Source: an uncultured Thermoproteaceae archaeon
GTDB lineage: Archaea > Thermoproteota > Thermoprotei > Thermoproteales > Thermocladiaceae
Assembly (NCBI GenBank): GCA_964575955.1
Contig: CAZNTG010000006.1
Span: 544,001-608,000, forward strand
Direction of reading: 5' to 3'
Length of the DNA: 64,000 bases
Shown here: positions 2,321 through 62,050 of the stretch, piece by piece
How the letters are laid out: each line of letters opens with the position of its first letter
Position numbering within the stretch: the stretch's first letter is position 1
Position numbers and translations under genes: made by a program
Notes under the pieces: generated by a model
What the model was told of the DNA's origin: nothing
What the model saw: only the letters and a program-made list of their open reading frames with translations
Databases searched by the model: none

Positions 2321-3638
2321 GAATATGAATCTTATAGATCCAGTTCATGATTGTAGACTTGTTGGTGTTGTTCGTGCTGTGACTGGTATTCATGATTGTG
2401 CATTGATAATTCATGGAAGACCTGGATGCCATAGCGGACCTCTAGGACTTCAATCACAAACTTCAAGTCAAAGATATGTAAATGTTGTATATAGTGGACT
2501 TAGAAGTGAAGAGATGGTTACAGGAGGTGAAAAGAGGTTAAAGTTAGCTATTGAAAATGTGTATAAAGTTATGAAACCCAAACTCATAGTTGTTGCATCA
2601 GCATCTGCTGCAGGTATTATGGGTGATGATGTTGATGGAGTTATAGGCGAAATATCTAGTAGTGTAAAATGTAGAATAGTTCACATATCTGCATGTGGAT
2701 ATTCAGGTCCTGAATGGACGGGATATGAAGATGCGCTAGTGAAAATAGTTGAAACAGTTTTGGAAGAGTATAAATCTAGACAAAGTTTTGAGAAGACTAA
2801 GAATAGAATATCAATAGTCGGCTTCCATCCTGATGAACCATTCTGGAGAGGTGATCTACAGGAACTTATAAATATACTTAAAGAAATACTCAATGTAGAT
2901 ATTAGTGTAGTCTTAAATTGGTGTTCTATAGAAGAAATATCAAATATAGTAAATAGCGATCTTGTAGTAGTTCTTGGTGGTGATGGTTTGAGTGTTGCAG
3001 ATTATTTAAAGAAAAATTTCAACATAGAATACATAGTAACACCATACCCAATAGGAATTAAGAATACTATAGACATGATATATAGTATAAGCTCTAAACT
3101 AGGTATTGATATTAATACAAAGAAGTTAGAAGCTTATGAAAAATATGTTAGAGACATTATAGAAGATTTTCAAACATATGTTGAAGGTATTTACGGAAAT
3201 GTTAGGTGTGTCATAGTTGGTGAAAGCTCTAGAGCATTTAGTTTAGCAAATTTCTTACTAAATGAGTTAGATTTCGATATTGAATATATCGGTATTAGAA
3301 GTAGAAACTATGTAACAGATAGTGAATTGTTAAAATGGAAGAATTCAGAAATTCTAAATGATAGATATGAACTTTATAAAAAGATCTTGGAAATATCTCC
3401 AGAGGTAGTATATGGTTCAACATTTGAGAGAGATATAGCATTGAGATGTGGATGTGCACTAGTTAGATATTGCTACCCAACTCTAGATAGAGTATACATG
3501 AGTGATAGAACTATAGTTGGATTTAGAGGAGCAATAACATTAATAGAAGAAACTATAAATGAGATGTTAAATATGCAAGAAAAGACAGAACTTGCATATC
3601 TATCAAAGATGAATGATACAAAACTACTTGAGAGATGA
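2304..3638 (+). CDS. Nitrogenase component-1-like oxidoreductase, beta (NifK/N-like) subunit
   Basis: DPVHDCRLVG, IHGRPGC, MVTGGEKRL, IMGDDV, C-terminal YPTLDR...VGFRGA typical of NifK/N-type chains. Confidence 0.9.
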   Translation: MKNLSENMNLIDPVHDCRLVGVVRAVTGIHDCALIIHGRPGCHSGPLGLQSQTSSQRYVNVVYSGLRSEEMVTGGEKRLKLAIENVYKVMKPKLIVVASASAAGIMGDDVDGVIGEISSSVKCRIVHISACGYSGPEWTGYEDALVKIVETVLEEYKSRQSFEKTKNRISIVGFHPDEPFWRGDLQELINILKEILNVDISVVLNWCSIEEISNIVNSDLVVVLGGDGLSVADYLKKNFNIEYIVTPYPIGIKNTIDMIYSISSKLGIDINTKKLEAYEKYVRDIIEDFQTYVEGIYGNVRCVIVGESSRAFSLANFLLNELDFDIEYIGIRSRNYVTDSELLKWKNSEILNDRYELYKKILEISPEVVYGSTFERDIALRCGCALVRYCYPTLDRVYMSDRTIVGFRGAITLIEETINEMLNMQEKTELAYLSKMNDTKLLER

Positions 3639-3684
3639 TGTAAAATCCGGTTCGCTGATATATGACGAAAAGGCCCGTATCTGA
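3635..3684 (+). ncRNA. box C/D sRNA
   Basis: ATGATGT (C, overlaps the stop codon of the beta gene), guide, CTGA (D'), ATGACGA (C'), 12-nt guide, CTGA (D). Confidence 0.8.
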
Positions 3685-4026
3685 CTAAAATTCTACCTCT
3701 ATACTCACTAATGTATATAGTCCAAATCTTATGAGTGTGTTTTTCATCAATGTTATCTCACTAATTCTGTAGGGTATGCCATTTTCTATTATGTATGTAC
3801 CATTTTTACTTCCAAGATCTTTCAATACTATGTTACTACCTTCCTGAAATATAGATGCGTGTTTTCTAGATACTGATGGGTCTGGTATTATTATTGTATT
3901 TTCTGGACTTCTACCTATAGTTATTTCTCTAAATGATTGTATATGTATATAGAGTTCGTATCCACATAGTTTTTGTAGGGTTGTTTCTATAAACTTAATT
4001 TTGAGTAGTGGTTTTGGTATATGCAT
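3685..4026 (-). CDS. FHA-domain protein
   Basis: ITIGR...D.SVSRKHA...LKDLGSKNGTY FHA signature. Confidence 0.9.
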   Translation of the reverse strand: MHIPKPLLKIKFIETTLQKLCGYELYIHIQSFREITIGRSPENTIIIPDPSVSRKHASIFQEGSNIVLKDLGSKNGTYIIENGIPYRISEITLMKNTLIRFGLYTLVSIEVEF

Positions 4027-4043
4027 ACTTAATCTTGATTATT

Positions 4044-6059
4044 CTATGTTGGTGTTGTTATTTGTCTTCTACGTCTTCTAGCTCTTGCTATAGCTATGGC
4101 TATTATTGCTATTATTGCAAATATTACACATATTATCTCAGGTAGGTGTTTATACATTATTGTTGTCATTGTTTCACCAATCTTTATATTTAGAGTTATC
4201 GATTTTACTAGTGTTGGTATGCTGTTAAGTCCATAGATTATGAATGGTTTTGGTGAGTATAATAACATCAATGTTGCATGATATATACCTACAGGTGTTG
4301 AACTATCTATCTCTAACAGATATGTCAATACTATAGTATCTCCTGGTCTTACCTCTCCAACATATATTTGATTTGCTGTCATTGCAGCTAGTGGATTGTT
4401 TTGTGGTACATGAAATGTCAATACTTTAGGTATTGATAATATTGCTTTAACATTTTCAAGAGTTGGCCCTCTAACATACTTTAGATATATTCTAAGTATT
4501 GCTCTACTAGATCCAGGGTAAAATCCTATCTCTTCAATTTTAACAACCTTGAACTCCGGTTTTGGAATTACTTTGAAAGTTACATAATAATCTTCATCAA
4601 CATCACAGTAATGTACGTTAATCTTCAAAATATATGTTCTAGGTGTAACATTATCAGGTACATTAAACATGAACTGTATTGGTATTGGCTTTCCAGGTGG
4701 TACTGCTGGTAATGTTATACTAGTCATATTTGGTGTATATGTTGAAAATTCTCTAGGCAATACTAGTCTAATAGTTACATTTTTTGCAATAACACTTCCA
4801 ACATTTACAATACTTACATTAAGTCTAATACCATTCATTCCGGGTGTTGCTATTGGTGGCATTGGTATTGCATATGCTACTCTAATCTTTGGTGAATATA
4901 TTACAATCTTCACAGTATGGACTTCTCTAACATGATCATACATGAATATAACCTGTATTGGATACTTACCTCCAGATATGTTCTGCAATGTCGATACTAT
5001 AAACGTTACCGGTATCTCTCTACCAGCAGTTACAACACCAATATTCTTACATAGAAGACCTGAACCTTTAAGTGGCTTTTCAAGTCTTATACATACGGTT
5101 AAGTTATCTATAGCTGATGTTGGTATAAACATTACTGTTAGAGGAATTTTACTATATCCAGGACCTACAGAAAATACCTTTCCTGGAAATCCCCAATATG
5201 CTGTGACAGCACTAAACTTAACCTCAGGAATACATAATCTAAATGATGTATTTAAAGTCCATGTAACACCAATACCATACTTAACAAATAGTTTTTCAGA
5301 ATAACAACCACCAGTAACATTATTGTAGAGATTTACTAGGTATGTTAATGTTATTGGTTTTCCTGGAGGTAATGCAGGTAGTGTAATGTTTAGATATTTA
5401 ACAATCTTCCCATTCTTAGTTGCATAGATTGGATATGATAATTTTAGTTGTATTGTCACATTTTCTAGAATTGATGTACCACTATTCATAACTATGATTG
5501 TTAATGGTATATTCTTCATTCCCGGTCCAACAATTTGATAGTTTTTATATCCGAGATATGCACCTAGAACCTGTATTCCTGAAGTTCCTATTATTGGAAG
5601 CTTTTGTGTATATTCTAAATGTTCATGTGTACAGTATTGACCTCTTTGAGTAACTATGCATATGTAGTAGTATGTTTCAATTTTGAAATCTTTAAATCCT
5701 GTAGATACTGTTGGAGGAATTCTCAAGTAGAATATACATGTACTATTCATTCCTGGAGCCATATATGGTATTTTACATATCTGTACACCACTAAACCACT
5801 CAATATTATCTGGAAGTTCTAACCATACTCTAACATCTTTGAAATAGAATTTTACACCTGATATGTTAGGTATGACTATTCCTACCTTGAGAATTGCAAG
5901 ACTTGTTCCTGGGCTTGGAACTTTAGGTTCTAGCCAATATGCGTAGACTATTGGAGTTATCTCACTCGTACTAACTGTCTGACAATGTACAACTTCAAGC
6001 CCTACCACTGATATTATCAGTGTAAGTGTTATAAGCAATATCTTGACTACTCTACTCAT
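4044..6059 (-). CDS. S-layer-like/COG1361 surface protein with repeated Ig-like (CARDB/NEW3-type) modules
   Basis: N-terminal signal peptide, repeated N.G...A.NV...LPPG modules, C-terminal TM helix followed by poly-Arg. Confidence 0.75.
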   Translation of the reverse strand: MSRVVKILLITLTLIISVVGLEVVHCQTVSTSEITPIVYAYWLEPKVPSPGTSLAILKVGIVIPNISGVKFYFKDVRVWLELPDNIEWFSGVQICKIPYMAPGMNSTCIFYLRIPPTVSTGFKDFKIETYYYICIVTQRGQYCTHEHLEYTQKLPIIGTSGIQVLGAYLGYKNYQIVGPGMKNIPLTIIVMNSGTSILENVTIQLKLSYPIYATKNGKIVKYLNITLPALPPGKPITLTYLVNLYNNVTGGCYSEKLFVKYGIGVTWTLNTSFRLCIPEVKFSAVTAYWGFPGKVFSVGPGYSKIPLTVMFIPTSAIDNLTVCIRLEKPLKGSGLLCKNIGVVTAGREIPVTFIVSTLQNISGGKYPIQVIFMYDHVREVHTVKIVIYSPKIRVAYAIPMPPIATPGMNGIRLNVSIVNVGSVIAKNVTIRLVLPREFSTYTPNMTSITLPAVPPGKPIPIQFMFNVPDNVTPRTYILKINVHYCDVDEDYYVTFKVIPKPEFKVVKIEEIGFYPGSSRAILRIYLKYVRGPTLENVKAILSIPKVLTFHVPQNNPLAAMTANQIYVGEVRPGDTIVLTYLLEIDSSTPVGIYHATLMLLYSPKPFIIYGLNSIPTLVKSITLNIKIGETMTTIMYKHLPEIICVIFAIIAIIAIAIARARRRRRQITTPT

Positions 6060-6102
6060 ACAGCTTACGTTAGCATTTCCATATTATAAACATTACTTGT
6101 TA

Positions 6103-61413: not shown

Positions 61414-61417
61414 GACT

Positions 61418-61748
61418 ATGAAACTCATACTCGCAATAATAAGACCAGAAAAACTAGATGATGTAAAGAGAGCATTAGAAGAAGCAGGAATATACCCAAT
61501 GACAATTGTCGAAGTCCGTGGTCGTGGAGAACAGAAAGGAATAACAATAATGTATAGAGGAAGACCAATAACGATAGATCTAATACCAAAAATAGAAATA
61601 CAGATAGTTGTTAGAGATGAAGATGTTGATAAAGTAATAAAAATAATAACAGAAAATGCAAGAACAGGAAAAACCAGGAGATGGAAGAATATTCATAATA
61701 CCAATAGAAAAATCTATTAGAGTAAGAACAGGAGAAGTAGAAGTCTAA
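61418..61748 (+). pseudogene. glnK: PII nitrogen regulatory protein GlnK with a +1 frameshift at the A5 run 61669-61673
   Basis: [22 protein letters not shown]; removing one A gives [28 protein letters not shown] ending at 61748. Confidence 0.88.
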
Positions 61749-61846
61749 GAATAAACTAGAAATAAACACAATACAAAAACTCGAAATCCTACCCCTAAAC
61801 TCTGCCTAAGAGATTCTCCAAGGCTCGAACTGTATTGTTGTAAAAT

Positions 61847-61946
61847 TGGCGCCGCCGCCGGGATTTGAACCCGGGACCTACGGGTTTCTGTGCGGGTAGC
61901 CCCCGCTTAACAGCCCGCCGCTCCAACCAGGCTGAGCTACGGCGGC
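61847..61946 (-). tRNA. tRNA-Asn(GTT) with a 22-nt intron at 37/38, CCA encoded
   Basis: Minus strand GCCGCCGTAGCTCAG...CTGTTA|AGCGGGGGCTACCCGCACAGAA|ACCCGT...GGTTCAAATCC; CTGT/ACAG central BHB helix. Confidence 0.95.
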
Positions 61947-62000
61947 TGTTTTAGCTTTATATAGTAGACCTTTTAACCCTTACTCTATATCTCTAGTCTT

Positions 62001-62050
62001 GTGATGAGATTGGTCTTATATGACTAGATGATTTATGGGAACGATGCTGA
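62001..62050 (+). ncRNA. box C/D sRNA
   Basis: GTGATGA-GATTGGTCTTAT-ATGA-CTAG-ATGATTT-ATGGGAACGATG-CTGA. Confidence 0.78.

Follow-up and report, generated by a model that had tools for sequence, protein, structure and literature searches.

A large and regular repertoire of box C/D guide small RNA genes in an uncultured genus of Thermoproteales

Introduction

The number of box C/D small RNAs (sRNAs) in an archaeon is thought to increase with growth temperature. A review (Breuer et al. 2021, PMC7994747) gives counts for seven species (128, 127, 88, 61, 52, 26 and 7), including Ignicoccus hospitalis (128), Methanopyrus kandleri (127) and Pyrobaculum calidifontis (88). Lui et al. 2018 (PMC6009581) describe 110 families with 526 genes in six species of Pyrobaculum, and 83 sRNAs are published for P. 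oguniense. No higher published archaeal count was found in the literature searched, with subscription papers and supplements lying outside its scope.

Here we describe the box C/D sRNA genes of a 64-kb stretch of archaeal DNA (the window; positions 544001-608000 of contig C6) and of the genome to which it belongs (genome code G000). This is the genome of an uncultured genus of the order Thermoproteales from a hydrothermal-vent metagenome, a possible source run being so labelled. The genome has no fewer than 172 box C/D sRNA genes, probably about 180-200, with ~340 different guides. This is the largest archaeal repertoire that we found reported, the published maxima being 127-128. The elements are ordinary in kind and extraordinary mainly in their number and regularity.

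Genome-wide search for box C/D sRNA genes

The assembly comprises 1.52 Mb in 15 contigs (~33% GC, 94.7% complete, 0.5% contaminated). A regular expression for the unit layout returned 59 strict and 129 relaxed units genome-wide, compared with 0-2 in shuffled sequences. A position-weight model (PWM) trained on the 129 relaxed units, which scores the four boxes, three lengths and guide composition, found 172 units at 24 bits or more, against 0, 1, 1 and 0 in four second-order Markov shuffles and none in the reversed, non-complemented genome. Lower cut-offs gave 191 units (at least 20 bits; 15 in the reversed genome) and 205 units (at least 18 bits; 24 in the reversed genome). The net number of sRNAs is therefore ~176-181, or ~200 at the loosest cut. 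Among the candidates scoring 18-24 bits, 6 of 33 have a match to ribosomal RNA (rRNA), compared with none in the control.

In the window, the PWM returned exactly twelve units, with scores of 33-48 bits. These are the same twelve C/D'/C'/D loci with mostly 12-nucleotide (nt) guides that had been listed in the first-pass annotation, and direct reading of these twelve places confirmed that all of them open with box C at the positions given there. The units consist of RTGATGA, ~12 nt, a four-nucleotide D' box whose last two bases are GA, 2-6 nt, NTGANNA, ~12 nt and CTGA, with a total length of 48-52 nt. Their guides are 11-13 nt long (12 nt in 18 of 24), and terminal boxes C and D are present on all twelve loci, 3635 and 37256 each having one variant. 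The next-best candidate, 41495-41540 on the minus strand (23.2 bits), is purine-rich, lies within the reverse-gyrase open reading frame (ORF) and is probably false, so that the window count stands at twelve.

The 172 units correspond to 113 per Mb, with 83-267 per Mb by contig. Across 202 sampled 64-kb windows 3-12 units were found (median 6), and the high density that had been noted for the window thus extends to the whole genome, with at least three units in each sampled stretch. The given window has the maximum of 12 (Poisson P(>=12) against the genome mean, 0.065) and stands out as the richest part of a genome that is evenly rich in sRNAs. The first-pass annotation had projected several hundred sRNAs from the window density and had allowed for a local hotspot in a genome with an ordinary count. 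The genome-wide search bore out part of this, since the count of at least 172 lies above the published maxima while the window is indeed the richest stretch. Because the window is the densest of those sampled, straight extrapolation (~285) overshoots ~1.6-fold, and "several hundred" is too high.

Box covariation and gene placement

Of the 172 units genome-wide, 146 have RTGATGA as box C and 162 have CTGA as box D. The D' guide is 12 nt long in 108 units and the D guide in 117, the D'-C' spacer measures 3-4 nt in 146, and the total length is 48-52 nt in 153. The recurring box style described for the window, with RTGAAGA as C' (8 of 12 loci) and CAGA as D' (5 of 12), also holds for the genome, where these boxes occur in 75 and 47 of the 172 units, respectively.

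According to the review PMC7994747, the kink-turn (K-turn) and kink-loop (K-loop) are defined by tandem G-A pairs and a Watson-Crick pair between position 6 of box C and position 1 of box D. In the present set, C' position 6 and D' position 1 are G-C in 137 and U-A in 19 units (Fisher p ~1e-18), and the corresponding positions of C and D are G-C in 168 and U-A in 3. Compensatory G-C to U-A changes in keeping with this pairing rule thus occur at both C/D and C'/D'. Position 5 of C' and position 2 of D' are U/U in 78, A/A in 51 and A/U in 22 units, and the matching internal box combinations are CAGA with UGAAGA (43 genes), CUGA with UGAUGA (41) and AUGA with UGAUUA (14). This covariation explains the recurring box style of the window loci, and it cannot have been produced by the PWM because the model scores positions independently. 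In four genes, namely 37256-37304 (-), C6:24002, C6:67972 and C6:315325, the styles are swapped, with RTGAAGA/CAGA as terminal and ATGATGA/CTGA as internal boxes, which indicates that the A/A variant of the K-motif serves as a terminal K-turn too.

Most units are intergenic: 108 of 172 have no overlap with any ORF of at least 100 amino acids, although such ORFs cover ~90% of the genome. In 27 further units, including 3635 and 9014 in the window, the TGA of box C ends an upstream ORF on the same strand, and 34 units overlap ORFs. TATA-like hexamers are present 24-40 nt before box C in 59 units, compared with 17 in a control window, and are concentrated at 26-35 nt. Guide GC is 53% against 33% for the genome. 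The word (G)AACATGT adjoins five window sRNAs (35341-35349, 37313-37321, 44258-44266, 46050-46058 and 46941-46948). As an sRNA-associated word it was rejected, since genome-wide it occurs in 6 of 344 flanks with ~5 expected and is not enriched.

Independent models and partner proteins

Genome-wide, 150 of 314 first-look candidates were scored with RF00095, a curated C/D model from Pyrococcus. Among these 150 it gave 87 matches at E<=10, of which 83 coincide with the 172 units. A scan of the window with Rfam at permissive E-values matched archaeal CD-box families (snoPyro_CD RF00095, sR2, sR9, sR60, sR35, sR17, sR5 and sR14) at nine of the twelve loci and at no other place. The genome also encodes fibrillarin (PF01269, 348 bits), Nop5 (PF01798, 236 bits) and L7Ae (PF01248, 106 bits).

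Guide complementarity to rRNA and transfer RNA

The assembly contains neither the 16S nor the 23S rRNA of the organism, as shown by profile searches with RF01959 and RF02540, and RF01959 had no match in any same-genus genome searched. The rRNA operons of three other genera of the family were therefore used as stand-ins. As a separate observation, the Thermoproteales include genomes with intron-bearing 16S genes. The strict rule for a match was at least 10 contiguous Watson-Crick pairs, among them the one at guide base 5 counted upstream from D or D' (N+5); both the 10-nt rule and the foreign rRNAs under-call targets.

When guides were paired with rRNA and transfer RNA (tRNA) by the N+5 rule, as the first-pass annotation had proposed, matches exceeded the controls for both. 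On the sense strand of the stand-in rRNAs, 81 of 344 guides match, compared with 10 in each of two controls (antisense strand and reversed guides). One or both guides match in this way, across the three genera, in 70 of the 172 sRNAs. Ten further guides match the organism's own tRNAs over at least 10 nt (0-1 in controls). Both guides fall within 100 nt of each other on one rRNA in 42 of the 172 sRNAs, against 9 for permuted partners and 6 for reversed rRNA. Dual guides to nearby sites have been tied to ribosome assembly by Lui et al. 2018 (PMC6009581).

In the window, six of 24 guides on five of the twelve sRNAs have strict matches, those of 8959, 9014, 37204 and 62001 to large-subunit (LSU) rRNA and that of 44270 to small-subunit (SSU) rRNA. 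With a relaxed score, four window sRNAs have both guides on one rRNA at sites 20-37 nt apart. Using a single stand-in rRNA, 57 of the 172 sRNAs have a match of at least 10 nt, compared with 3 of 9 and 4 of 10 in two relatives on their own rRNA. Since the matched share equals that of these relatives, the unmatched remainder is no evidence of an unusual orphan load, and the earlier suggestion that most guides lack an rRNA match is not supported as written. For Pyrobaculum, 28% orphan guides at an 8-bp threshold are given in the same text (PMC6009581).

Conservation and paralogy of guides

Loci around three window proteins were taken from relatives and scanned for sRNAs. In all six same-genus genomes the gene at 9014 follows enolase; its D guide never changes, and its spacers vary. 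The guides of 8959 recur in three of six same-genus loci, once in a tail-to-tail arrangement with a 2-nt gap (G004). Those of 46892 are kept in five of six loci with a different D'-C' spacer in each, and genus g3 has a weak copy. The pair 46058/46109, neither member of which has a strict rRNA match, is kept in three of six (G001, G002 and G005) with a 0-nt gap and near-identical guides. The neighbouring cysteinyl-tRNA synthetases are 67-78% identical among these species. The locus of the beta-lactamase-like gene (near 35289-37304) is not syntenic in relatives.

In another family (G020 and G022), sRNAs with guides of 8959, 9014 and 35388 (both guides) are among the matches listed, as read by eye. 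Single guides of 37256 and 62001 also occur among those matches, and the D guide of 37256 is nearly identical in an sRNA of G022. On contig C3 of G020 sRNA matches are repeated in mirrored order (e.g. 45466/245915 and 115939/175442), which inflates the G020 count by ~6. Either a large duplication in inverted orientation or an artefact of assembly is indicated.

Within the genome, 26 pairs of guides differ by two mismatches or fewer, against ~8 expected from shuffled guides. The sole whole-gene paralogs found are 46109-46156 (-) and C6:339963-340010 (-), with identical D guides and one change in the D' guide.

Tail-to-tail pairs and gene clusters

For 50 of the 172 genes, another sRNA gene lies within 200 nt, and the resulting pairs are tandem (13), convergent (9) or divergent (4). 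In seven of the convergent (tail-to-tail) pairs the D boxes are 0-13 nt apart. Three of these lie in the window at 8959-9063, 37204-37304 and 46058-46156 (gaps of 3, 1 and 2 nt), and the others are C12:20402-20501, C2:39614-39714, C9:129229-129334 and C9:20458-20572. Such gaps leave no room for a terminator, so each transcript would be expected to run into the antisense of its partner and then to be trimmed back to the ribonucleoprotein (RNP). Among the tandem pairs, C3:125692-125789 and C10:54689-54791 overlap by one base, the last A of box D being the first A of box C, and a three-gene tandem array is present at C9:111224-111409.

Interpretation and alternative explanations

The twelve window loci are very probably independent genes for archaeal box C/D guide sRNAs. 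This assignment is based on a motif architecture that exceeds chance, covarying boxes, location between genes, conserved guides, complementarity to rRNA and tRNA and the three protein genes, and from these sequence features we infer transcription, RNP assembly and methylation. Each ~50-nt RNA would fold with boxes C and D paired as a K-turn and C' and D' as a K-loop. L7Ae would bind both motifs and recruit Nop5 and fibrillarin. A 12-nt guide would pair with its target, mostly rRNA and in some cases tRNA, and fibrillarin would 2'-O-methylate the target nucleotide that faces the fifth guide base, counted upstream from D or D'. Folding of rRNA is probably aided too by dual guides on neighbouring rRNA sites.

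Several observations weigh against this assignment or against the size of the repertoire. Pairing of the flanks outside the boxes (a terminal stem) was no better than with shuffled partners; the absence of a terminal stem is usual for archaeal sRNAs. All twelve loci score below the gathering threshold of every Rfam family (e.g. RF00095, RF01139 or RF01312), the best scores being 30.7 bits against 45 for RF00095, 29.5 against 42 for sR2 and 26.8 against 36 for sR9. The organism's own 16S and 23S rRNA are missing from the assembly, and 253 of 344 guides are without a match of at least 10 nt to the stand-in rRNAs or own tRNAs. A sequencing-run search with window positions 37100-47000 returned no RNA runs and two DNA runs that contain this DNA, one of the two being the possible source. 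The present count is motif-based whereas the published counts are supported by RNA sequencing, and some lineages may hold more sRNAs than have yet been counted.

Short boxes invite chance or compositional look-alikes in an AT-rich genome, where TGATGA-like words are common. Indeed, the reversed genome gives 117 candidates at 12 bits or more and 15 at 20 bits or more, and several candidates near 20-24 bits in the real genome lie in purine-rich coding DNA. At 24 bits or more, however, the controls yield 0-1 units against 172, and chance matches would not be expected to show covariation, to lie between genes, to be complementary to rRNA solely on its sense strand or to keep their guides across species, which makes this explanation of the loci scarcely credible. 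The count could also be inflated by recent duplicated, decaying or mobile copies of sRNA genes that do not guide, similar to miniature inverted-repeat transposable elements (MITEs). MITE-like elements resembling sRNAs and duplications are described for Pyrobaculum by Lui et al. 2018 (PMC6009581), one whole-gene paralog pair (46109 and C6:339963) is present here, and many guides have no identified target. On the other hand, the guides are almost all different (26 close pairs against ~8 expected, with a single whole-sRNA duplicate), 46058 and 46109 keep their guides in three other species despite having no rRNA match, and high pattern counts are common to all seven genomes of the genus (92-136). 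We therefore consider substantial inflation of this kind very unlikely.

A different proposal accepts real RNPs but assigns a large share of them to other RNAs or other ways of acting, such as mRNA 3' ends, antisense regulation or folding chaperones, instead of methylation of rRNA and tRNA. It would accommodate the 253 unmatched guides, the 27 genes adjoining an upstream stop codon and the 34 overlapping ORFs, as well as the read-through antisense RNA implied by the seven tail-to-tail pairs. Roles of convergent sRNAs directed at mRNA have been raised by Bernick et al. 2012 and by Lui et al. 2018 (PMC6009581). The latter report that no conserved mRNA targets emerged for orphan guides in Pyrobaculum. 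Moreover, two relatives paired with their own rRNA under the same strict rule show an equal rRNA-matched share, and targets are under-called with the 10-nt rule and foreign rRNAs. This proposal appears unlikely, though less so than an inflated count. A composite picture, which we regard as possible rather than probable, is that a low-GC vent genus holds the largest and densest known repertoire (~180-200 sRNAs and ~340 guides in 1.5 Mb) with unusually canonical, covarying internal boxes, that a conserved tail-to-tail unit with a 0-3-nt gap, by forcing each transcript into the antisense of its partner, couples 3'-end formation or dosage of the two sRNAs, and that a substantial part of the conserved unmatched guides act on other RNAs.

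Assignment of the loci to the box C/D guide sRNAs leaves the known mechanism of these RNAs unchanged. The ~340 guide sequences are a resource for mapping hot spots of archaeal rRNA methylation, and sRNA finders could well be trained on a set whose boxes are so unusually clean. For the formation of sRNA 3' ends where there is no room for a terminator, a natural test case is offered by the conserved tail-to-tail pairs.

The sRNA genes of the window

The gene at 3635-3684 (+; 33.6 bits) has the boxes C ATGATGT, D' CTGA, C' ATGACGA and D CTGA, and RF00095 has a sub-threshold match at the same place. Its box C contains the stop codon of ORF 2304-3638 and its 3' end adjoins the convergent ORF 3685-4026; the guides have no match of 9 nt or more to the stand-in rRNAs. 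The genes at 8959-9010 (+; 34.3 bits) and 9014-9063 (-; 47.7 bits) lie tail-to-tail, the latter directly after the enolase gene, whose stop codon is contained in its box C. The D' guide of the former and the D guide of the latter each have an 11-nt match to stand-in LSU rRNA.

The intergenic gene at 35289-35338 (+; 47.5 bits) has a TATA-like sequence ~30 nt upstream and a longest rRNA match of 9 nt, to stand-in SSU rRNA. It is convergent, across a 49-nt gap, with 35388-35437 (-; 47.7 bits), whose D' and D guides match SSU sites 21 nt apart by the relaxed score and which has a partial sub-threshold match to Rfam sR60. The gene at 37204-37254 (+; 48.2 bits) scores 30.7 bits with RF00095, and its D' guide has a 10-nt LSU match with a relaxed match of the D guide 37 nt away. 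Its tail-to-tail partner, 37256-37304 (-; 39.7 bits), carries the swapped boxes GTGAAGA/CAGA (terminal) and ATGATGA/CTGA (internal), has a sub-threshold match to Rfam sR14 and shows no match of 9 nt or more to the stand-in rRNAs.

Between the genes for seryl-tRNA synthetase and S26e, in antisense orientation, lies 44270-44321 (-; 44.3 bits), which has a TATA-like sequence near -31, a 10-nt SSU match of the D' guide and a relaxed match of the D guide 20 nt away. The gene at 46058-46106 (+; 46.5 bits; RF00095, 24.9 bits) overlaps the last 30 nt of ORF 45317-46087 and is tail-to-tail with 46109-46156 (-; 43.1 bits), which has a sub-threshold Rfam sR2 match of 29.5 bits. Upstream of the cysteinyl-tRNA synthetase gene, 46892-46941 (-; 44.4 bits) has a sub-threshold match to Rfam sR9, and its D' guide partly resembles the sR9 consensus. 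Finally, the gene at 62001-62050 (+; 33.2 bits) has the internal box style ATGA/ATGATTT, and both of its guides have 10-nt matches to stand-in LSU rRNA at sites 29 nt apart.

Neighbouring features of the window

Reverse gyrase, a marker of hyperthermophily, is encoded at 38410-42357 (-) with zinc finger, helicase, Toprim and topoisomerase domains. ORF 2304-3638 (+), the only one scanned of a same-strand run at 875-3638, encodes a nitrogenase component-1-type oxidoreductase (PF00148, 242 bits), an arrangement that looks unexpected for a genome of Thermoproteales. The tRNA genes at 52543-52638 (+) and 61850-61946 (-) are 96-100 nt long, were assigned to Lys-UUU and Asn-GUU by ARAGORN on the genome and presumably bear introns. 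A sub-threshold Rfam match to "Plastid-ycf2" at 49678-49754 (-), antisense to tRNA-Met, looks spurious.

Comparison with known systems

Nine of the twelve window loci align end to end with archaeal CD-box families of Rfam, mainly via the four boxes, but at scores of 19-31 bits, whereas the gathering scores are 36-60 bits. Among relatives, an exact box pattern gave 92-136 matches in all seven genomes of the genus (114 in the present one) and 98-114 in a second uncultured genus (g7). By comparison, it gave 5-33 matches in cultured-type relatives, and the highest values in 300 other genomes sampled from the phylum were 52 and 33. The pattern under-counts genes with looser internal boxes, as seen from its 5-20 matches in Pyrobaculum-like genomes against ~74-88 published genes. 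Its counts reflect how canonical the boxes are no less than how many genes there are, and no absolute difference is therefore claimed; the 5-20 matches against 114 show that the internal boxes here are far more canonical.

The PWM found 8-10 units of at least 24 bits in 400 kb from each of three relatives compared with 39 in G000, on which it was trained, and it is less sensitive in other genomes. If G024 is a Pyrobaculum, as we infer, ~17 units per 400 kb would be expected from the published counts. The lower-scoring PWM candidates in the relatives showed no enrichment of rRNA targets.

The sRNAs of Pyrobaculum, which probably belongs to the same order of archaea, share many features with the present set, as described by Lui et al. 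2018 (PMC6009581). They have the same C/D'/C'/D layout with 12-nt guides and dual guides to nearby rRNA sites. Their genes adjoin or overlap the 3' ends of ORFs, with box C supplying the stop codon of the upstream ORF, and they include tandem dicistrons and occasional convergent pairs. Set against 526 genes spread over six Pyrobaculum genomes, the present genome, with 172 genes in 1.52 Mb, has ~2x as many per genome and is ~25% smaller. A stop codon within box C is found in 27 of 172 genes here against 23 of 526 there. A convergent pair with a 1-bp gap was termed "highly unusual" in that text, whereas here there are seven tail-to-tail pairs, some of them conserved across species.

Ignicoccus hospitalis and Methanopyrus kandleri, which have small genomes, resemble the present organism in combining hyperthermophily with many C/D box sRNAs, according to the review cited above. 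With at least 172 recognisable genes in 1.5 Mb, the genome described here stands about a third higher than both and extends the upper range of archaeal box C/D sRNA repertoires (127-128) accordingly.

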